DNA from: Candidatus Woesearchaeota archaeon | GTDB lineage: Archaea > Nanobdellota > Nanobdellia > Woesearchaeales > WJKL01 | Direction: 5' to 3' | DNA length: 16,504 nucleotides | Assembly (NCBI GenBank): GCA_019322815.1 | Contig: JAHWIB010000028.1 | Span: 1-16,504 of the forward strand | Part shown: positions 3,000-16,483 of the stretch, in pieces | Position numbering within the stretch: position 1 is the first letter of the stretch | Layout of the letters: every line of letters starts with the position of its first letter | Notes under the pieces: model-generated | Seen by the model: only the letters and a program-made list of their open reading frames with translations | What the model was told of the DNA's origin: nothing | The model's database searches: none | Translations under genes and position numbers: made by a program

Positions 3000-3557
3000 T
3001 TAGAACCAATAACCTGCTGTTAAAACAATAATTCCTTTCACATTCTCACTTCCAATCATCATAATATAATTGAATTTTGCATCAATTCTATCAAACAAAG
3101 TGTTTATTCCAACGCCAATACCAACGCTTGTACTTGATTTTTCATCATGAACACCCATTGCTGGAATATCTATATCGGAAAATTCACTTAAAAAAGCAAG
3201 CCCTCCAGTAAAATAAATATCTGCAATACCTATTGATTTAGATTGATAGACTGCATCAACTCTTAGCAAAAAACTATCTGTTTCTATATATTGTTCAGAT
3301 GATCTAAAATAATCCAAATTTGCTTCAAGACCTAAATTCCTAACTCGCTCTATATCAAACCCATATGATACGCCGACTGCAAAAGAGGCATCATAATCTT
3401 TTTCTTCTTCTGCTACAGGACAGACTAACCCAGCTTTTGGTTCTATATATTGGTCTGGCAGAGGCGCGCATCCAATTGCTAATGAAGTAATACCTGCCAA
3501 AGCCCATATCTTAACTTTTTTAACTATTGATTCAAGATTCCCTATAATATTCATCAT
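3000..3557 (-). CDS. lipobox-containing beta-rich protein resembling small 8-stranded outer-membrane beta-barrels (OmpX/OmpW/OMP_b-brl-like)
   Basis: - N-terminal hydrophobic segment ends in AIGC (a lipobox-like L-A-I-G-C).
- Several alternating hydrophobic/polar strands: FAVGVSYGFDI, LEANLDYF, LLRVDAVYQ, IYFTGGLAFL, VGIGVGINTLF, AKFNYIMMIG, IIVLTAGYWF.
- C-terminal aromatic-X-F terminus.
- The start ATG overlaps the stop of the upstream giant gene (ATGA).
Family assignment is pattern-based only. Confidence 0.6.
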   Translation of the reverse strand: MMNIIGNLESIVKKVKIWALAGITSLAIGCAPLPDQYIEPKAGLVCPVAEEEKDYDASFAVGVSYGFDIERVRNLGLEANLDYFRSSEQYIETDSFLLRVDAVYQSKSIGIADIYFTGGLAFLSEFSDIDIPAMGVHDEKSSTSVGIGVGINTLFDRIDAKFNYIMMIGSENVKGIIVLTAGYWF

Positions 3558-6500
3558 TCATCACAATATTCATAACATTTTCCAAAACTGCAAACTTTTA
3601 TGCAGTTGATGCATCTTCCTAGAGTACATCCTTTTGGACATTGTTCAATTAATTGTCCATTGTCAGAATAACTGCAAGAAGCAGATGGAGTTCCTGGATT
3701 ATTGCAAATATAAGTTCTATAATAATCCCAAACATCATCTGCATTGCAATATTCATTTCCAATAAAGTCATCTGTACCGCAGTCAGAATCATAATAACAT
3801 TCAATTGCTGCACAATTTCCTTGATAACATGTATCAGTGCATGTTTCTTTTAACTGATTATTATCTGCATAATCGCATGAAGATGAACCAGTTCCAGGAT
3901 TAGAGCAGCTATAGTCTCTAAATGTGTCCCAGACATTGTCTCCATTACAGTAATCATTATCTAACCAATAATCTGCAGTGCAGTCATTATCATCATAACA
4001 TTCTACTGCAACACACAATCCAGATTCGCATGTGTCTGTACATATCTCTTTTGACTGGCTTGCATCAGAGTATGAGCATGATGCTAAAGCTGTTCCTGGG
4101 TTGCTGCAAGTATAAGTTCTGTAATCCTGCCAGACATCATCTCCGCTACAGTATGTACTGCCTACCCATCCGTCTGTTCCGCATTCAGCATCATTATAAC
4201 ATTCTATTGTAGCGCAAGAACCTTCATAACAAATTTCTGTGCATGTTTCTTTTAATGATGAAGTAATGCTGCTTGAACAGCTTGATGAAGAAGTTCCTGG
4301 GTTGCTGCAAGTATAAGTTCTGTAATCCTGCCAGACATCATCTCCGCTACAGTATGTACTGCCTACCCATCCGTCTGTTCCGCATTCAGCATCATTATAA
4401 CATGATATTGGGTCACAACTTCCTCCAGAACAAGTATCTGGACATGTTTCTTTTAATTGATTATTATCAGAGTATGAGCATGAAGAAGATGGAGTTCCTG
4501 GACTGCTGCATGTATAGGTTCTATAACCTTGCCAGACATTGTCTCCGCTGCAGTATGTACTGCCTATCCATGTATTTGTTCCGCAGTCTGAATTTGAATA
4601 ACATTCAATTGTAGCGCAAGCGTTACTATAACATGTGTCAGGACAGTCTTGTTTTAATTGTCCGTTATCAGAGTATGAGCATGAAGAAGATGGAGTTCCT
4701 GGATTGCTGCATGTGTAGGTTCTGTAATCCTGCCAAAGATCGTTGCCGTTGCAGTAAGAACTGCCTACCCATGTATTTGTTCCGCAGTCTGAATCAGTAT
4801 AACATGATATTGTAGTGCAAGAGCCAGACCAGCAAGCATCTGCGCAAGTTTGAACTAACTGCTCTTCAATATATTCGCTTTCATAACAGGCTCCTGAAAG
4901 ACATCCTCTGTTATAACATGTTCTGCTCTTATATACATCTCCTGATTTGCAATAATTACTGCTCCAAGAACCACAGCTGCCTGTGCCGCAGTCTTCAATT
5001 AATTGGGAAGAATCTGAATATGAACAAGCTGAACTAGTAGTGCCTGGATTTGTGCATGAATAAGTCCTGTAATCCTGATAAACATCATCACTTGTACAGT
5101 ATGTATCTCCTACATAACCATCTGAGTCACAATCAGAAGTTGAATAACATTCAATTACTTCTGAAGCTGGCTGGAAATCCAAGGCTCCACCATATATGCC
5201 TGGTGGAATAAAGTTAGCTAAAACTGTAAAACCTGGATCTAGTTTATACACTCTTTTATTAGTATAATCAGAACTCCAATAAAAACTTCCATCATAAGCA
5301 ATACCATAAGGACTTGAACTAGGTGCATTATGATCACTATGCGCAACCCCACTAAACCATTCAATCGAATAGACTTTTTGATCAACCATATCAGCATTTA
5401 ATATCCAATAATCGTTAGCACATCCCAAACCATAGGGATAATCTCCGGGGGTATTAAAACTATCTGAAACAGTACCATCAGTTGACATCCTATAAATTTT
5501 ATCATCAGTGCTATCTGAAACCCATAAATAACTTTTACACCAAGTTAGTCCGCTAGCAGAAGAACTAGGAGCATTGATTGTATCTACTATTATGCCAAAT
5601 GTAGTTACTTTGTAAACTTTATCAGCTTGAGCATCAACAATCCACAGATGGCTTCCATCCCATGTAATTCCAGTAGATGCTGATCCAGGGCTGTTAAAAC
5701 TATCAACAACAGTTCCGTCAGTCGTTAATTTGTAAATTTTATCATTCCACCAGTCAACATACCATAAATAACCATCAACAATGCACTGTCCTCCATCGCA
5801 GCCATCGCTGCAAGAGGTATATAATTGAGGAGTAGTTGAGTGTGAGCAGCTTGATGATGTAGTTCCTGGATTGATGCATATGTAGGTTCTATAATCCCAC
5901 CAAACATCTCCAGAATTGCAGTAAGGATAACCTACATACCAATCAACTCCACAGTCTGAATTTGAAGAACATTCTATAGAAACACAAGCTCCTGCTTGGC
6001 ACTCATCTGGACAACTTTCGATCATATTAGGAGTTGTGCTGCTTGAACAGCTTGAAGAAGGTGTTCCTGGATTATTGCAGTCATATGTTCTATAATCCCT
6101 ATAAACATCTCCTCCGCTGCAGTAGTTGCTTCCAGCCCAGCCGTCAGTACCGCAGTCTAAATCTGAATAGCAGGCAATACCTACACAACTTCCTCCAGAA
6201 CAAGTATCTGGACAATTTTGTTTTAGTGTAGGTGTATCTGTGCTGCTGCAAGAAGATGAAGGTGTTCCTGGATTATTGCAGTCATAGGTTCTATAACTTT
6301 GATAAACATCATTTCCACTGCAGTATGTACTGCCTACCCATCCATCTGTTCCGCAGTCTGAATCAGATGAACAACCAACAGCCTGGCAACTAGGATTGTT
6401 ATCAATACACATCTCATCTGAATTGCAATTATCTTGAACAGACCAAGCACCCCACATTATAGATCCAGTACAGCTGCTGCTTGAACCACTGCAATATTTA

Positions 6501-7105
6501 TCTGCATAGTGAACTCCTACATCATCTCCAGGGCTTGTTCCCCATGGGCATCCATAATCTGTCTGGATATCTTCTCCGCATTTATAGCTTGGAAGCCTAT
6601 AGTTACATGTTGATAAATCACAGCAAACACCGCTTCCACATTGACCAAAGGTTATATCTACATTCTGAGGAGAAGTGGTGCAGTCCCCTGTATAAGGGCC
6701 ATTGTTTATTTCAGAAATACTATAAATTTCTATTGTGTTTCCTTCTGTTCCTCCTGCAAAACTTCCTAATTCTTCGGTAAAAGTGTGGCTATAATCAACA
6801 TACGCACAGTAAGTTGGACTTTCTACAGCCTGAAAAAATTTTGTAATTCCAGTTATATAATCATCACCTACTACATCATCTTCCCAAAGATATATATCAA
6901 TTTCAACAGAACCAAAGTTATTAGCACATTCAAGCATTTCTAATGCACTCAAATAATATCTTCCGCTGACAGTAATATCAACATATTCTCCGTCACATGC
7001 AGATGATTGAACACCTATAGAACATGATGCAGATACATTCAAAGCTAATAAAATAAAAGAGAGACCACATAATAAAATTAAAAATAATCTTTTACTAACC
7101 ACCAT
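3554..7105 (-). CDS. giant secreted cysteine-rich repeat protein (1183 aa): signal peptide, N-terminal domain, 3 Cys modules, propeller-like repeats, 7 Cys modules, Cys-rich tail
   Basis: Uninterrupted 3.5-kb ORF. N-terminal signal-like segment LFLILLCGLSFILLALNVSAS. Ten ~67-aa modules containing ...DCGTDGWVGSTYCSG(D/N)DVWQDYRTYTCSNPGTPSSSCS..., each with 8 Cys. Five to six ~42-aa blades (DKIYK..DG......F..P......G...DG..LW). No C-terminal transmembrane segment. Stop is TGA. Confidence 0.85.
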   Translation of the reverse strand: MVVSKRLFLILLCGLSFILLALNVSASCSIGVQSSACDGEYVDITVSGRYYLSALEMLECANNFGSVEIDIYLWEDDVVGDDYITGITKFFQAVESPTYCAYVDYSHTFTEELGSFAGGTEGNTIEIYSISEINNGPYTGDCTTSPQNVDITFGQCGSGVCCDLSTCNYRLPSYKCGEDIQTDYGCPWGTSPGDDVGVHYADKYCSGSSSSCTGSIMWGAWSVQDNCNSDEMCIDNNPSCQAVGCSSDSDCGTDGWVGSTYCSGNDVYQSYRTYDCNNPGTPSSSCSSTDTPTLKQNCPDTCSGGSCVGIACYSDLDCGTDGWAGSNYCSGGDVYRDYRTYDCNNPGTPSSSCSSSTTPNMIESCPDECQAGACVSIECSSNSDCGVDWYVGYPYCNSGDVWWDYRTYICINPGTTSSSCSHSTTPQLYTSCSDGCDGGQCIVDGYLWYVDWWNDKIYKLTTDGTVVDSFNSPGSASTGITWDGSHLWIVDAQADKVYKVTTFGIIVDTINAPSSSASGLTWCKSYLWVSDSTDDKIYRMSTDGTVSDSFNTPGDYPYGLGCANDYWILNADMVDQKVYSIEWFSGVAHSDHNAPSSSPYGIAYDGSFYWSSDYTNKRVYKLDPGFTVLANFIPPGIYGGALDFQPASEVIECYSTSDCDSDGYVGDTYCTSDDVYQDYRTYSCTNPGTTSSACSYSDSSQLIEDCGTGSCGSWSSNYCKSGDVYKSRTCYNRGCLSGACYESEYIEEQLVQTCADACWSGSCTTISCYTDSDCGTNTWVGSSYCNGNDLWQDYRTYTCSNPGTPSSSCSYSDNGQLKQDCPDTCYSNACATIECYSNSDCGTNTWIGSTYCSGDNVWQGYRTYTCSSPGTPSSSCSYSDNNQLKETCPDTCSGGSCDPISCYNDAECGTDGWVGSTYCSGDDVWQDYRTYTCSNPGTSSSSCSSSITSSLKETCTEICYEGSCATIECYNDAECGTDGWVGSTYCSGDDVWQDYRTYTCSNPGTALASCSYSDASQSKEICTDTCESGLCVAVECYDDNDCTADYWLDNDYCNGDNVWDTFRDYSCSNPGTGSSSCDYADNNQLKETCTDTCYQGNCAAIECYYDSDCGTDDFIGNEYCNADDVWDYYRTYICNNPGTPSASCSYSDNGQLIEQCPKGCTLGRCINCIKVCSFGKCYEYCDE
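3611..5155 (-). repeat. C-terminal array of seven ~201-bp (67-aa) Cys-rich coding modules, plus one degenerate unit
   Basis: Protein residues about 651-1165. The YRTY.C.NPGT motif recurs with a 67-aa period. The DNA period of 201 bp is confirmed by the perfect duplicate at 4092-4202 and 4293-4403. Confidence 0.8.
4092..4403 (-). repeat. pair of perfectly identical 111-bp segments (4092-4202 and 4293-4403), offset 201 bp
   Basis: Direct comparison of the sequence. Both copies read gttcctgggttgctgcaagtataagttctgtaatcctgccagacatcatctccgctacagtatgtactgcctacccatccgtctgttccgcattcagcatcattataacat. They encode the identical 37 aa CYNDAECGTDGWVGSTYCSGDDVWQDYRTYTCSNPGT in modules 7 and 8. Confidence 0.9.
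5156..5779 (-). other. beta-propeller-like internal domain of the giant protein (5-6 blades of ~42 aa; NHL/YncE-like pattern)
   Basis: Residues about 443-650. Repeated pattern [LY]W..D...DK[IV]Y[KR]....G.....[FI]..P.....G[IL]. Family assignment is tentative. Confidence 0.5.
5780..6373 (-). repeat. N-terminal array of three ~201-bp Cys-rich coding modules
   Basis: Protein residues about 245-442. Same module consensus as 3611-5155 (DCGTDGW.GS.YCSG.DVY..YRTYDCNNPGTPSSSCS). Confidence 0.75.
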
Positions 7106-7561: not shown

Positions 7562-8941
7562 TTATAATTCTACTTTCTCTCCAATCTTTGGGATATGGCT
7601 ATTAAATCCTATCTTATTTAATCTTTCTTTTAAAGCTTTAGAAGATTTATATTCTCCATGTATAATGAATATTTTTTTAGGCTTTTTAACAAAACCTTTG
7701 CTCCATCTAACCAATTCATTATAATCAGCATGAGCAGAAAAGCTGTTTATTTTTTGTATATCTGCATTCACATCAACAACCATTCCCATCATCCTTGCCT
7801 CTTTTGCGCCTTCTAAAAGATATCTTCCCAAAGTTCCTTCTGCCTGGTAACCTACAAACAACACGATGTTTTTAGGATCCCATAATCCATGCCTTAGATG
7901 GTGCCTTATTCTTCCTGCAGTGCACATGCCGCTTCCTGCAATTATAACGCACGGCTTATTATAATTATTTAATTTCTTTGAATCCCTTGCAGTAGGGGTA
8001 TATTCAAGATTAGAAAACCTGAAAGGATTCTTGTATCTGGTCAATGCCTCTTCGTCAAAGAATTCATGATGCTTTTTGAATATCTCTGTTGCTTTTATTG
8101 CCAGAGGACTGTCAAGAAATATCTTCATATCTGGAAATTTTCCCTGCTTGATCAGTTTGTTAAATGAATAAAGCAGCTCCTGTGTCCTTTCAATTGCAAA
8201 AGAAGGTATTAATAGTTTTCCTTTTCTTTTATAGGCCTCTTTTGAGTATTTTAACAGTAAACTATCCCTGTCAGCAATCTCTTCATGAAGCCTGTCACCA
8301 TAAGTTGATTCAATTAAAACATAATCTGCGTCATCTATCATAGTGGGGTCCTCTATAATTGGAACATCCCACTGCCCTAAATCTCCAGAAAAAACAATCT
8401 TTTTTTCTCTGCCCTTTTCTTCAACAAACATCTCAATTATCGATGAGCCTATGATATGGCCTGCATCCTTATATCTGACCTTAATATTTTTTTCAATATT
8501 ATACAATTTGTTATAATCAACTTTTTTAAACAGAGGTATTGAAGCGCTGACATCTCTATCAGTATACAAAGGCTCTCTCTGCGGAAGGCCTTGTCTTCTA
8601 AGCCTCTTGTTCTCATGCTCATTTTCCATGTATTGGATATGAGCAGAATCATCAAGCATTATCCTGCATAAATCAATTGTTGCAGAAGTTGCGAAGATTT
8701 TTCCTCTGAAGCCATACTTTACTAATTTAGGAATCAGGCCGGAATGGTCAATATGTGCATGGGTAAGGAAAAGATAATCAATTTTCTTTGGATCAAATAA
8801 AAAAGGCTTGTAATTTAATCTTGTTATATCCTTGGTTCCCTGAAACATCCCGCAGTCAACTAATACTTTGCTCTTTCCAGCCTCAATCAAATAACAAGAA
8901 CCAGTAACTATCCTAGCTGCCCCGCAAAAAGTTATCTTCAT
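7562..8941 (-). CDS. beta-CASP family MBL-fold ribonuclease (aCPSF2 / RNase J-like, no KH domains)
   Basis: Metallo-beta-lactamase motif HAHIDHSG. N-terminal MKITFCGAARIVTGSCYL....VLVDCGMFQG is typical of beta-CASP RNA-metabolising enzymes. C-terminal ...SAHAD... and IIHGE motifs. 459 aa. Confidence 0.85.
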   Translation of the reverse strand: MKITFCGAARIVTGSCYLIEAGKSKVLVDCGMFQGTKDITRLNYKPFLFDPKKIDYLFLTHAHIDHSGLIPKLVKYGFRGKIFATSATIDLCRIMLDDSAHIQYMENEHENKRLRRQGLPQREPLYTDRDVSASIPLFKKVDYNKLYNIEKNIKVRYKDAGHIIGSSIIEMFVEEKGREKKIVFSGDLGQWDVPIIEDPTMIDDADYVLIESTYGDRLHEEIADRDSLLLKYSKEAYKRKGKLLIPSFAIERTQELLYSFNKLIKQGKFPDMKIFLDSPLAIKATEIFKKHHEFFDEEALTRYKNPFRFSNLEYTPTARDSKKLNNYNKPCVIIAGSGMCTAGRIRHHLRHGLWDPKNIVLFVGYQAEGTLGRYLLEGAKEARMMGMVVDVNADIQKINSFSAHADYNELVRWSKGFVKKPKKIFIIHGEYKSSKALKERLNKIGFNSHIPKIGEKVEL

Positions 8942-10327: not shown

Positions 10328-10759
10328 ATGAGATTATGGAGTATACATCCAAAGTATCTTGACTGCAAGGGGATTTTAGGATTATGGAGAGAAGCATTAT
10401 TAGCTAAAAAAGTGTTGGAGGGTAAAACTAAAAGTTATGTTAATCATCCCCAGTTGGAAAGATTCAAAGAACAAAAAGAGCCTGTTAAGTTCATTAAAAC
10501 TTATTTATTATATATCTGGAAAGAATCTGATAAAAGATGTTATAGATTTGACAAAACAAAAATTGGAAGAGGTTTTACAAATAAAAAGATAAAAACAACA
10601 GAAGGCCAGATTAAATATGAATTTAAGCATCTGAAAGATAAGCTTAAAAAAAGAAACACAATTAAATACAAAGAATTAATGAGAATTAAAAAAATTGAAC
10701 CAAATCCTTTATTTAAAATAATAAAAGGCCCAATAGAAAGATGGGAGAAACAAAAATGA
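10328..10759 (+). CDS. pyrimidine dimer DNA glycosylase / endonuclease V (DenV-like) family protein
   Basis: The N-terminus MRLWSIHPKYLDCKGILGLWREALLAKKVLEGKTKSYVNHPQL matches the conserved start of this family as I recall it (MRLWSLHPKYLD.KGLVALWREALLAQ.VL.G.T.GY.NHPQL). Stop is TGA. Confidence 0.8.
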   Translation: MRLWSIHPKYLDCKGILGLWREALLAKKVLEGKTKSYVNHPQLERFKEQKEPVKFIKTYLLYIWKESDKRCYRFDKTKIGRGFTNKKIKTTEGQIKYEFKHLKDKLKKRNTIKYKELMRIKKIEPNPLFKIIKGPIERWEKQK

Positions 10760-11286
10760 AAAAACTATTGCTGCATGTATGCTGCGCACCTTGCTCAACA
10801 CATGTAATTAATGTTCTGAAACAAAATTATGACTTAACTTTGTTTTTCTATAATCCAAATGTAGAGCCGTTGAATGAGTATTCTTTAAGATTAGAAGCAG
10901 CTGAAAAGTTTGCAGAAGAGATAGATATTCCAATGATTGTGGGAGATTATGATGCAATTGAATGGAACAATGCAATAAAAGGCCATGAAAATGACGAAGA
11001 AGGTGGAGAAAGATGTTCTATCTGTTTTAGATTCAGGTTAGAAAAGACTGCACAGACTGCTAAAGAAAAAGGATTTGATTTGTTTACAACAACATTAACT
11101 GTTTCTCCTTATAAAAATGCTCCTGTTATTAATCAAATTGGAAAGGAATTATCTGAAAAATATAATATTGAGTTTTTAGAATCTGATTTTAAAAAAGAAG
11201 ATGGTTATGCACATAGTATTAAGCTGAGCAAAGAGCATGGATTATACAGGCAGGATTACTGCGGATGTTTATTTTCCAAGAAATAA
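10756..11286 (+). CDS. queH: epoxyqueuosine reductase QueH (DUF208)
   Basis: LLLHVCCAPCS near the N-terminus, the RCSICFRFRLEKTA motif and the TTTLTVSPYKN motif are typical of QueH. The ATG at 10756 overlaps the upstream TGA (ATGA) and is preceded by GGGAG. The track start at 10741 would lie inside the upstream gene. Confidence 0.85.
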   Translation: MKKLLLHVCCAPCSTHVINVLKQNYDLTLFFYNPNVEPLNEYSLRLEAAEKFAEEIDIPMIVGDYDAIEWNNAIKGHENDEEGGERCSICFRFRLEKTAQTAKEKGFDLFTTTLTVSPYKNAPVINQIGKELSEKYNIEFLESDFKKEDGYAHSIKLSKEHGLYRQDYCGCLFSKK

Positions 11287-11934: not shown

Positions 11935-12918
11935 TTATTTATTTAGAATCAGCATTGCATCTCCAAAACTAAAGAACCTGTATTTATTTTTGACTGCTAA
12001 TTTATATGCACTTAAAATCTTTTTTCTTCCTGTGAATGCACTTACTAGCATCAATAAAGTGGATTTAGGCAGATGAAAGTTTGTTATTAAGCCATCAATC
12101 TTTGTCTTAAACTTATAACCTGGCTTAATGAAAATCTCTGTTTCTCCTTTTTTTGGAATAATTTTATTGTTTTTGTTTGCTGATTCTAATGTTCTTACTG
12201 ATGTTGTTCCAACAACAAATAATCTTCCTTTTCTTTTGTTTATAATATCTGCATTCTTTTTGTTTATTTCAAAATATTCTTTATGCAATGTTTTTTTATT
12301 AATATTTCTTACAGGCAGAAATGTTCCAAAGTCAACATGCAATGTAACTTTTGCAATTCTTATCCCTTTTTTCTTGATTTTAGATAATAATCTTTTTGTA
12401 AAATGCAGTCCAGCTGTCGGCGCTGCAATGCTTCCTTTTTTATTTGAATAAACTGTCTGGTATTGAGAATTTTTTTCTAGCTTTCTTTTAACATAAGGAG
12501 GAAGGGGCAATTGCCCAATAGATCCCATTATCTTGTTAACATCTTCATCAAATTCAACTGTGAAATGATCTTCATCCTGATCTATTATTTCTGCTTTATA
12601 TTTATTGAAGATCAATTTATTACCCACTCTTGGATTAGTTGCTTTTATCCTGCATTTGTATTTGTTTTTATCAATTTCTTCAATAATCAATTCAACTTTT
12701 GCTCCTGTTGTCTTTTTTCCTGTTAATTTAGCTGGAATCACTTTTGTTTCATTTACAACTAAAACATCTCCTTTATTCAAATAATCTAGGATGTTGTAGA
12801 ATTTCTTATGATGGATTTTTTTGTTTATTATCATTAATTTAGAATTATCCCTAGGTGAAACTGGAAACTGTGCAATAAATTCTTTTGGAAGATTATAATC
12901 AAAGTCAGATAATTTCAT
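11935..12918 (-). CDS. queA: S-adenosylmethionine:tRNA ribosyltransferase-isomerase
   Basis: Colinear with E. coli QueA as I recall it: MKLSDFDYNLPKEFIAQFP, PLPPY, YQTVYS...GSIAAPTAGLHF, VTLHV..GTF.PV, VGTTSVRTLES, ITNFHLPKSTLLMLVSAF, YRFFSFGDAMLI. Confidence 0.92.
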   Translation of the reverse strand: MKLSDFDYNLPKEFIAQFPVSPRDNSKLMIINKKIHHKKFYNILDYLNKGDVLVVNETKVIPAKLTGKKTTGAKVELIIEEIDKNKYKCRIKATNPRVGNKLIFNKYKAEIIDQDEDHFTVEFDEDVNKIMGSIGQLPLPPYVKRKLEKNSQYQTVYSNKKGSIAAPTAGLHFTKRLLSKIKKKGIRIAKVTLHVDFGTFLPVRNINKKTLHKEYFEINKKNADIINKRKGRLFVVGTTSVRTLESANKNNKIIPKKGETEIFIKPGYKFKTKIDGLITNFHLPKSTLLMLVSAFTGRKKILSAYKLAVKNKYRFFSFGDAMLILNK

Positions 12919-15594: not shown

Positions 15595-15834
15595 ATGACA
15601 ACCAAATTGCAAGAAAGACAAACAATCGATAGTACAGTAGCTGATGTTAGAAGTCAGTATATTCCTGAATCAAGAGAGTATATGCCTCAAACTAAAAGAT
15701 ATAAGCCTGCAGAAAAAGATATATCTCAGGATTATGTTAAAAGTATGAAAGCTAAGTTCTTGGATTGGTATTTTGGACTGCCTAAAAAAGGGGATCCAAG
15801 AAGAAAAGAATATCTAGCTATTTTTTCTAATTAA
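15595..15834 (+). CDS. hypothetical protein (79 aa)
   Basis: Intact ORF with a TATA box at leaderless spacing. No recognisable family. Its 3' end overlaps the convergent rsmI by 8 nt. Confidence 0.5.
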   Translation: MTTKLQERQTIDSTVADVRSQYIPESREYMPQTKRYKPAEKDISQDYVKSMKAKFLDWYFGLPKKGDPRRKEYLAIFSN

Positions 15835-16483
15835 TAATTAAAACAATCTCTCCTTTTAATTTTTTTACTTTTTGATAAACTTCTTTTACCTTTCCTCTTA
15901 TAAACTCTTCAAATTTCTTTGTCAGTTCTCTTGCTATTACAATATTTTTTTCAGGGATTATTTCATCCATTAATCTTAATGTTCTTATGATTCTATGAGG
16001 GCTTTCATAATAGATGAATGTTAAGTTTTCTGTTTTTGATATCCAGAACAGAACATCTCTTAGTTTTTTTTCTTTTTTTGGCAGAAATCCAAAAAATCCA
16101 AATTTATCAGTTGGCAGGCCTGAGCAGACTAATGCTGAAATTATTGCTGTCGGGCCTGGAATTGGGCTTATCTGGATATTGTATTTTACTGCTTCTCTTA
16201 CTAAGTAGAATCCTGGATCACTGATTCCTGGTGTTCCTGAATCTGAAACTAAAGCCAAGTCTTTTCCTTGTTTTAACAGTTCAATCGCTTTTTGTGTAAC
16301 TCTTGTTTTATTTATATCATTATATGAGATAATCTCTTTATCTTTAATCATATATTCTCTTAACAAAATTTTAGTTCTTCTTGTATCTTCTGCAAGAATT
16401 AAGTCTGCTTCTCTTAATGTATCAACTGCTCTTAATGTGATATCTTTAAGATTTCCTATTGGTGTTGAAACAATGTATAACAT
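15827..16483 (-). CDS. rsmI: 16S rRNA (cytidine-2'-O)-methyltransferase RsmI-like (tetrapyrrole-methylase fold)
   Basis: The N-terminus MLYIVSTPIGNLKDITLRAVDTLREADLILAEDTRRT matches the RsmI signature (LY.V.TPIGNL.DIT.RA...L...D.I.AEDTR.T). Also SDSGTPGISDPG and ESPHR motifs. Confidence 0.85.
   Translation of the reverse strand: MLYIVSTPIGNLKDITLRAVDTLREADLILAEDTRRTKILLREYMIKDKEIISYNDINKTRVTQKAIELLKQGKDLALVSDSGTPGISDPGFYLVREAVKYNIQISPIPGPTAIISALVCSGLPTDKFGFFGFLPKKEKKLRDVLFWISKTENLTFIYYESPHRIIRTLRLMDEIIPEKNIVIARELTKKFEEFIRGKVKEVYQKVKKLKGEIVLIIN

Follow-up and report, generated by a model that had tools for sequence, protein, structure and literature searches.

Some secreted proteins of eukaryotes are assembled from small cysteine-rich modules repeated in tandem, examples of which are the arrays of calcium-binding EGF-like (cbEGF) domains in fibrillin, thrombospondin repeats (TSR) and LDLa modules. 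These are beta-rich units of 40–70 amino acids (aa) with invariant cysteines, they are joined head to tail by a minimal linker or none at all, and they act as rigid spacers between functional domains; in cbEGF arrays, a conserved Asp/Asn cluster lies at the N-terminal pole of each module, next to the previous one. On archaeal surfaces, the S-layer protein of Methanosarcina (Protein Data Bank (PDB) entry 1l0q) combines a YVTN propeller with tandem small beta-domains of the PKD type. A life in attachment to other cells is assumed for DPANN archaea, and the molecules that make this contact are almost unknown; their large surface proteins are mostly annotated as 'hypothetical'. Here we analyse a 16,504-nucleotide stretch of DNA from a Candidatus Woesearchaeota archaeon (hereafter, the window) and, within it, a minus-strand open reading frame (ORF) whose predicted secreted product carries ten copies of a 67-aa, eight-cysteine module. 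We find that this module represents a new domain family, within a class that is already known ('Cys-rich extracellular tandem modules'), and that it is characteristic of DPANN archaea.

The ORF at 3554..7105 (−) comprises 1183 aa and a stop codon and fills exactly the interval to which an earlier note on this DNA had assigned the repeat. Its product is 100% identical to the NCBI entry 'hypothetical protein KY343_04610 [Candidatus Woesearchaeota archaeon]'. A pattern search and MAFFT alignment placed module starts at aa 245, 312 and 379, and then at 653, 768, 835, 902, 969, 1036 and 1103, with a repeat period of strictly 67 aa (201 nt) and a cysteine spacing per module of C-x5-C-x10-C-x13-C-x9-C-x11-C-x3-C-x4-C. 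Tandem Repeats Finder independently reported a 201-nt period at 4064–4822 (3.8 copies, 79% matches). A family profile built from 139 modules, 2 of them from the window protein, recognised the ten copies with E values of 2e-21 to 4e-29 and a degenerate inserted unit at 2.7e-8. Pairwise identity among the copies is 40–75% for protein and 51–79% for DNA, and the ten-copy repeat is far above chance. The earlier note had described a ~67-aa, eight-cysteine module in two arrays with one degenerate unit; this description held in full, and the consensus that it gave agrees with that of the family.

Judged from its sequence, the ORF product is a secreted multi-domain protein, in which a signal peptide, a 217-aa head, three modules, a propeller, seven modules and a Cys tail follow one another. 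The features of the locus are as follows.

7025..7105, minus strand: putative signal peptide, aa 1–27 (MVVSKRLFLILLCGLSFILLALNVSAS), read from the sequence by its basic n-region, hydrophobic core and VSA-S cleavage-type site.
6374..7024, minus strand: N-terminal head, aa 28–244; no match to Pfam or to the module profile.
6173..6373, minus strand: module 1, aa 245–311; family profile E 3.8e-29.
5972..6172, minus strand: module 2, aa 312–378; family profile E 6.2e-29.
5777..5971, minus strand: module 3, aa 379–443; family profile E 8.4e-25.
5150..5776, minus strand: predicted five-bladed NHL/YVTN/Vgb-lyase-like beta-propeller, aa 444–652; from Pfam, PDB profile search, structure prediction and Foldseek.
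4805..5149, minus strand: module 4, aa 653–767, with an inserted short variant unit at about aa 705–767 (4805–4993); E 2.2e-21 and 2.7e-8.
4604..4804, minus strand: module 5, aa 768–834; family profile E 1.5e-26.
4403..4603, minus strand: module 6, aa 835–901; family profile E 3.4e-27.
4202..4402, minus strand: module 7, aa 902–968, the copy chosen for modelling; E 3.3e-28.
4001..4201, minus strand: module 8, aa 969–1035; E 1.9e-26, 75% identity to module 7.
3800..4000, minus strand: module 9, aa 1036–1102; family profile E 2.9e-24.
3611..3799, minus strand: module 10, aa 1103–1165; family profile E 1.5e-24.
3557..3610, minus strand: C-terminal four-Cys tail, aa 1166–1183 (INCIKVCSFGKCYEYCDE), which also ends the paralogue P0002 and the large proteins of loci L005, L006 and L007.
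3000..3557, minus strand: 185-aa OMP_b-brl-like ORF (Pfam PF13505), candidate anchor or docking partner; its start codon and the large ORF's stop codon overlap.

Of the residues of the protein, 109 (9.2%) are cysteines, and their count is even in each domain of the mature chain (16, 86, 2 and 4). This and the N-terminal signal peptide fit the extracellular, disulfide-bonded fold that the earlier note had proposed. The copy at aa 653–767 holds an insert of 48 aa, a shortened module in its own right. We note that such short variants (~45–60 aa; YC-x-x-GDVY...C-Y-x-x-GC-x4-C...C-x3-C-x-x-G-x-C), which lack the N-terminal loop and the NPGT loop, recur near the C termini of tail-bearing relatives (L007:2–238, L005:6681–6980).

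Conservation across the family is strict. Of 1334 full-length copies, 1316 (98.7%) retain all eight cysteines, so that co-loss of cysteines is uninformative on disulfide connectivity. In the family consensus, Asn or Asp is conserved at 80–88% at module positions 4, 6, 10 and 34, and positions 12, 17, 24, 27 and 30 are conserved as aromatic. We modelled module 7 with AlphaFold2 (AF2), using the 139-module alignment, and obtained a mean predicted local distance difference test score (pLDDT) of 95.6 with strands at 11–19, 22–33, 41–52, 57–59 and 62–64; this is a confident prediction of a long three-stranded antiparallel beta-meander with a small C-terminal hairpin cap. Mean-field direct coupling analysis (DCA) of 1295 modules was read from non-Cys couplings only, and Cys–Cys couplings were set aside as artefacts of invariant columns and pseudocounts. 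Couplings 28–46, 24–50, 26–48 and 30–44 define the register between strands beta2 and beta3 (i+j=74), and 10–30, 12–27 and 16–25 that between beta1 and beta2 (i+j ~39–41), which provides independent support for the modelled beta1–beta2–beta3 meander. Registers and strands together put C32 opposite C42 and the termini at opposite ends. The model thus suggests that C1, C7, C32 and C42 gather at the N-terminal pole and C18, C54, C58 and C63 at the C-terminal pole, with the chain probably entering the module at one pole and leaving at the other.

The module has no name or structural analogue in Pfam-A, NCBIfam, PDB sequences, PDB folds or BFVD, as the earlier note had surmised when it could not place it among named domains. 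Searched at E ≤ 1 against Pfam-A, the whole protein gave only matches to the propeller, apart from MORN_2 (E 0.062, no significant stretch); against NCBIfam it gave no relevant match. When 139 diverse modules were searched singly against Pfam, scattered weak matches were obtained, among them Dickkopf_N (15 modules), ADAMTS_CR_2 (14) and DUF7107 (10), and the first window module had none. The best of these E values (0.015–0.029) are not significant because 139 queries were made, and no module reached the gathering score of the three families. A profile search of all PDB sequences returned one insignificant, zinc-knuckle-like match (E 0.6). We took a Foldseek E value below 0.001 or a TM-score above 0.5 as the mark of a shared fold, and the pLDDT-95.6 model found neither in the PDB (best E 3.3, TM-score ≤ 0.43 among the matches listed) nor in BFVD (best E 0.84). 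Full-text literature searches gave no description of the module. In the libraries searched, profile comparison thus yielded no confident match to any characterised family; we conclude that the module is a new domain family and possibly a new fold.

The earlier note had also likened the Asp-rich start of the module to thrombospondin (TSP) type 3 repeats, and both have an Asp-rich stretch near a cysteine in an extracellular repeat. As homology, the likeness did not survive: TSP_3 (PF02412) was absent from the whole-protein matches at E ≤ 1 and from the 25 families that the 139 modules hit most frequently. Where TSP type 3 has the motif D-x-D-x-D-G-x-x-D-x-x-D, the module has [ND]-x-[DE]-C-G-x-[DN]-G, and the former makes a Ca2+-wrapped loop, whereas the module is predicted to be a beta-sheet domain. 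Compared with cbEGF, TSR and LDLa modules, the new one is similarly small, Cys-invariant, beta-rich and arranged head to tail, and its Asp/Asn cluster lies, as in cbEGF arrays, at the N-terminal pole beside the previous module; a role as rigid spacer is our proposal. It differs in lacking any sequence or fold match to them, in having eight cysteines rather than six, in a core that is a long three-stranded meander with strands of 9–12 residues, and in belonging to DPANN archaea rather than eukaryotes, with Ca2+ and disulfides that are here putative. The general principle of Cys-rich tandem modules is familiar, and any function of this one is only a proposal.

To describe how widely the module occurs, we combined several searches. 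All 120 homologues among the matches listed carry it (915 copies). The family profile found 1645 copies in 219 proteins, with 3–20 per protein and a median of 7, and a HMMER scan of 1.84 billion representatives matched 2048 clusters of 50% identity at E ≤ 1e-3 (1259 at ≤ 1e-10); a single protein had as many as 30 matched stretches. Phyletic distribution was read from the source names of matches. Twenty of the 21 organism-named matches are DPANN (Woese-, Pace-, Nano- and Aenigmarchaeota, an ainarchaeum and an 'archaeon'), the remaining one is a Staskawiczbacterium of the candidate phyla radiation (CPR), and three further named cluster representatives are archaeal. A two-module query against GTDB genomes returned only two archaeal loci, and GenBank phages and IMG/VR held no copies. 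The earlier note had thought such a module unusual for a presumably anaerobic, small-genome archaeon; it is instead typical of the lineage, because 2048 clusters carry it and nearly all organism-named matches are DPANN. Its partners include many extracellular enzymes and adhesion domains; they range over CARDB, the same propeller, the MopE motif, DUF11, PKD, PA14, cohesin, F5/8-C and vWA domains and over enzymes, namely glycoside hydrolases (GH5, GH2 and GH25) and S8, M23 and S9 peptidases. Copies occur in long arrays or singly between propellers (protein P0009). This great diversity of partners, together with single modules as connectors between propellers, favours a generic scaffold over specific binding.

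Between the two arrays of the window protein lies a region for which the earlier note had predicted a propeller-like core, and a beta-propeller was confirmed by PDB profile search, AF2 and Foldseek. Pfam Vgb_lyase (PF24684) matched aa 444–652 with E 2.8e-11 and 43.2 bits, under the cut-off of 50, and the region is therefore named an NHL/YVTN-type propeller rather than a Vgb lyase; five blades against seven likewise set it apart from the virginiamycin B lyase family. Its profile matched, in the PDB, Vgb lyase (4e-24), Pizza6 (the designed Pizza propeller), the Methanosarcina S-layer YVTN propeller 1l0q (2e-13), LRP YWTD and NHL (5e-7). AF2 modelled 20 strands in five four-stranded blades (pLDDT 93.9), so that of the 'five to six' blades suggested beforehand, five stands and six does not. 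Foldseek gave matches at probability 1.00, including TRIM2 NHL (TM-score 0.73) and the five-bladed papaya glutaminyl cyclase 2iwa (root-mean-square deviation 2.8 Å). In the central region, to which this comparison applies, the ~42-aa blades and the closed fold are of the NHL/YVTN/Vgb-lyase type. By profile and model, this propeller is related to archaeal S-layer YVTN and NHL ligand-binding propellers: the central 209 aa resemble 1l0q and the NHL and Vgb-lyase propellers in sequence profile (E 2e-13 to 4e-24) and in fold, and the Methanosarcina protein likewise joins a propeller to tandem small beta-domains on an archaeal surface. Those propellers have six or seven blades, as opposed to five here, and PKD domains flank the propeller of 1l0q where Cys modules flank this one.

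The head (aa 28–244) consists of two sub-domains, at ~28–145 and, Cys-rich, at ~150–244, with 16 cysteines in all. It had no match in a Pfam search and is common to only 12 of 219 family proteins. Negative family-profile scores ruled out that aa 150–244 are a degenerate module. A hydrophobic N terminus is present in 169 of the 196 family proteins that start with Met, and a hydrophobic C terminus in only 19 of 219. The N termini and the partner domains together point to an extracellular setting for the family.

The C terminus of the window protein points to a candidate anchor. The 185-aa ORF that follows it matched OMP_b-brl (PF13505) with E 3.5e-8 and 34.2 bits, above the cut-off of 28.7, which places it in this family by score; its product has a lipobox-like LAIGC and a C-terminal GYWF. 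This small barrel-like family is rare, with only 7 members in 5.8 billion proteins. We located its genes at window 3000–3557 (−), L003:10140–10736, L005:7001–7561, L006:123–683 and L007:266–826, and in all five readable loci the upstream gene encodes a tail-bearing module/propeller protein. The tail follows the pattern NCI[KE]VC[SN]FG[KN]CYEYC, with a variant in L007. Relatives that end in CARDB have neither the tail nor the small gene. Tail and small barrel-like gene thus co-vary across five loci, from which we infer that the tail docks on the small barrel-like protein. Proteins P0001 and P0002, from the same metagenome-assembled genome, are 43% identical, and the ORF downstream of P0002 is 47% identical to the 185-aa product. 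We note that this genome holds at least two paralogous pairs of module/propeller protein and small barrel gene, that the P0002-type locus is syntenic across samples and adjoins TYW3 (L003, L005), and that a barrel of the bacterial outer-membrane type is unexpected in an archaeon with a single membrane.

Taken together, these observations lead us to a proposal that we hold to be somewhat likely: the module is a disulfide-stabilised, three-stranded spacer with its ends at opposite poles, stacked into rods that serve as a stalk displaying the propeller and head. The 67-aa unit would be an autonomous extracellular domain, as its varied copy numbers and its use both singly and in arrays indicate, and would be stabilised by disulfide bonds. 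Arrays would stack head to tail into stiff rods used as stalks or spacers, because consecutive copies abut without a linker (C8-x4-C1'), and the 12-residue strands of the model suggest ~4–5 nm per module. After export by the Sec signal peptide, the three-module and seven-module arms would hold the five-bladed propeller and the N-terminal head away from the cell, and docking of the four-Cys tail on the co-transcribed, lipoprotein-like beta-barrel protein would tether the assembly to the membrane. The whole protein would most likely be an adhesin, or a protein for surface display, through which the cell makes contact with a host or substrate. The module may also bind Ca2+, by analogy with cbEGF, since its Asn/Asp cluster (positions 4, 6, 10 and 34), next to the preceding module, occupies the position of the Ca2+ site that makes cbEGF arrays rigid; bound there at the N-terminal pole, Ca2+ would rigidify the module junctions. 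For the disulfides there is a precedent in the disulfide-forming machinery reported in ultrasmall CPR bacteria (bioRxiv 10.1101/335083).

Several points weigh against this proposal. The Cys–Cys pairing, Ca2+ site and rod geometry are inferred from a model, and the extracellular placement of family members is predicted from their sequences. Two poles of four cysteines would suit two Zn(Cys)4 sites just as well. The habitats of many DPANN archaea are anoxic and often sulfidic, and extracellular disulfides are less stable there; no thiol oxidase came to light in this genome, although it could not be searched for one. The conserved aromatics could make up a surface for ligand binding instead of a core. 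Finally, the window carries bacterial-type QueA, QueH and RsmI-type genes, and because of these the archaeal assignment rests on the NCBI label and the paralogous loci.

If the aromatics do face outwards, the module could be a ligand- or glycan-binding repeat, CBM-like (resembling carbohydrate-binding modules, CBMs) or adhesive, that binds polysaccharide or host glycan, and its arrays would provide avidity instead of length. The aromatics at 12, 17, 24, 27 and 30 do sit on a small, predicted disulfide-rich beta-sheet, CBM1 is an example of a small, Cys-rich carbohydrate-binding module with three strands, and some relatives pair the module with GH5, GH2, mannanase-like or GH25 enzymes. However, glycoside hydrolases are a minority of the partners, which otherwise include CARDB, propellers, peptidases, DUF11, cohesin and vWA, and 10–30 copies per protein, like single connector modules between propellers, fit a scaffold better. 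No CBM is among the Pfam families matched, the PDB matches are insignificant and are not CBMs, and in the DCA the aromatics co-vary with cross-strand neighbours, as core residues would. We therefore regard this explanation as unlikely.

The cysteines themselves might instead bind metal: the eight would form two Cys4 sites (Zn, or Cu/Fe) in place of four disulfides, giving metal-stabilised or metal-sequestering arrays. Their predicted grouping by fours at two poles (AF2 and DCA) and the presumed anoxic habitat would suit such sites, and a 2026 survey of archaeal 'dark' domains mentions unnamed eight-Cys domains read as multi-metal binders (PMC13607799), which may or may not include the present module. 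Relatives also alternate the module with PF11617, the Cu-binding_MopE motif, and are named accordingly; yet the labels 'putative metal-binding motif-containing' and 'cysteine-rich repeat protein' are due to PF11617 or DUF4215 (PF13948, TIGR02232), which are located between modules. These families, of which DUF4215 is the Myxococcus-type Cys-rich repeat, are, like the module, short Cys/Asp-rich repeats of DPANN and CPR surface proteins, but they are units of ~30–47 aa that lie between modules and never on them, and the window protein has neither (PF11617 by Pfam; DUF4215 by Pfam and NCBIfam). In 38 relatives, 0 of 105 MopE-like motif matches overlap a module, and in P0043 the DUF4215 match (aa 1001–1035) falls between modules. 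The PF11617 profile (30 aa, DCxDxxxxxxPGxxExCxGxDxxCxG) does not match the module, and hhalign gives the pair a probability of 0.24%, so that the two are unrelated. The module also lacks CxxC knuckles and His ligands, its spacings (x5, x10, x13, x9, x11, x3, x4) are typical of disulfide-rich extracellular modules, the sole zinc-knuckle-like PDB match was insignificant, and family proteins bear export signals. On this evidence, metal binding seems to us a poor prospect. It is very improbable that the module is a divergent member, below detection, of a known Cys-rich family (TSP type 3, Dickkopf_N/colipase-like, ADAMTS Cys-rich, DUF7107, EGF-like or MopE), since the weak matches that hint at it, in ~10% of the 139 modules, are not significant and do not extend to the window module, the whole protein has no such match at E ≤ 1, profile search of PDB sequences found nothing significant, Foldseek against the PDB, which includes Dickkopf, EGF, TSR and TSP3 structures, found nothing with E < 3 or TM-score > 0.43 among the matches listed, and hhalign separates the module from MopE.

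The spacer proposal can be extended. In its furthest form, which we consider doubtful, the module would be a new fold and the principal unit from which the surface proteome of Woese-/Pacearchaeota is made, a counterpart of cbEGF that forms Ca2+- and disulfide-rigid rods tens of nm long, joined by the four-Cys tail to a dedicated OMP-like lipoprotein barrel, and the two genes would constitute an undescribed system of cell-surface display and attachment in episymbiotic DPANN. If true, this would imply an unrecognised extracellular thiol-oxidation pathway in anaerobic DPANN.

Beyond the large ORF and the barrel-like gene, the window and the paralogous loci bear on the source of the DNA. The archaeal source favoured in the earlier note agrees with the NCBI label Woesearchaeota, and its support also comes from TYW3 in L003, L004 and L005 and form-III-like RuBisCO in L004 and L005. 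The bacterial-type genes of the window are QueA at 11935–12918 (−; 421.8 bits, above the NCBIfam cut-off), QueH at 10741–11286 (+; Pfam E 7.6e-72) and an RsmI-type 16S rRNA 2'-O-methyltransferase at 15827–16483 (−; TIGR00096, above cut-off); they suggest horizontal acquisition, or binning in need of a check. At 7562–8941 (−), a 459-aa MBL/beta-CASP/RMMBL protein has 'type VII CRISPR-associated Cas14' as its best NCBIfam match (445.9 bits, cut-off 800) and also matches aCPSF1; it is probably an aCPSF2-like ribonuclease, and no CRISPR context is visible in the 16,504-nt window. The G+C content is 0.37–0.42 within the large ORF (window 3500–7000) and 0.27–0.34 in the flanks, which is probably better explained by a composition rich in Cys, Gly, Ser, Thr and Asp than by foreign origin. 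Antisense plus-strand ORFs at 3922–4212, 4273–4614 and 6481–6780 look like by-products of the repeat, not genes. We also note that N-x-S/T sequons are strongly depleted in the window protein: the signal peptide holds the only one, whereas 500 shuffles gave 14.1 ± 3.3 (minimum 5). Depletion is similar in P0002, P0003 and P0008 and is not seen in P0004–P0007; it may have been inherited as the repeat duplicated, or glycosylation may have been selected against.

The module accounts for much of the sequence in at least ~2000 protein clusters. Defining it would help to annotate a large part of the DPANN 'dark matter', delimit the functional domains that lie between copies (propellers, hydrolases and peptidases) and provide a marker for lineage-specific surface proteins. 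It would also raise the question of how archaea that are anaerobic and reduced in genome assemble extracellular proteins rich in Cys. The module should be useful for annotation and for the biology of contact between DPANN archaea and their hosts, and the co-varying pair of tail and barrel-lipoprotein suggests a concrete mechanism of anchoring.

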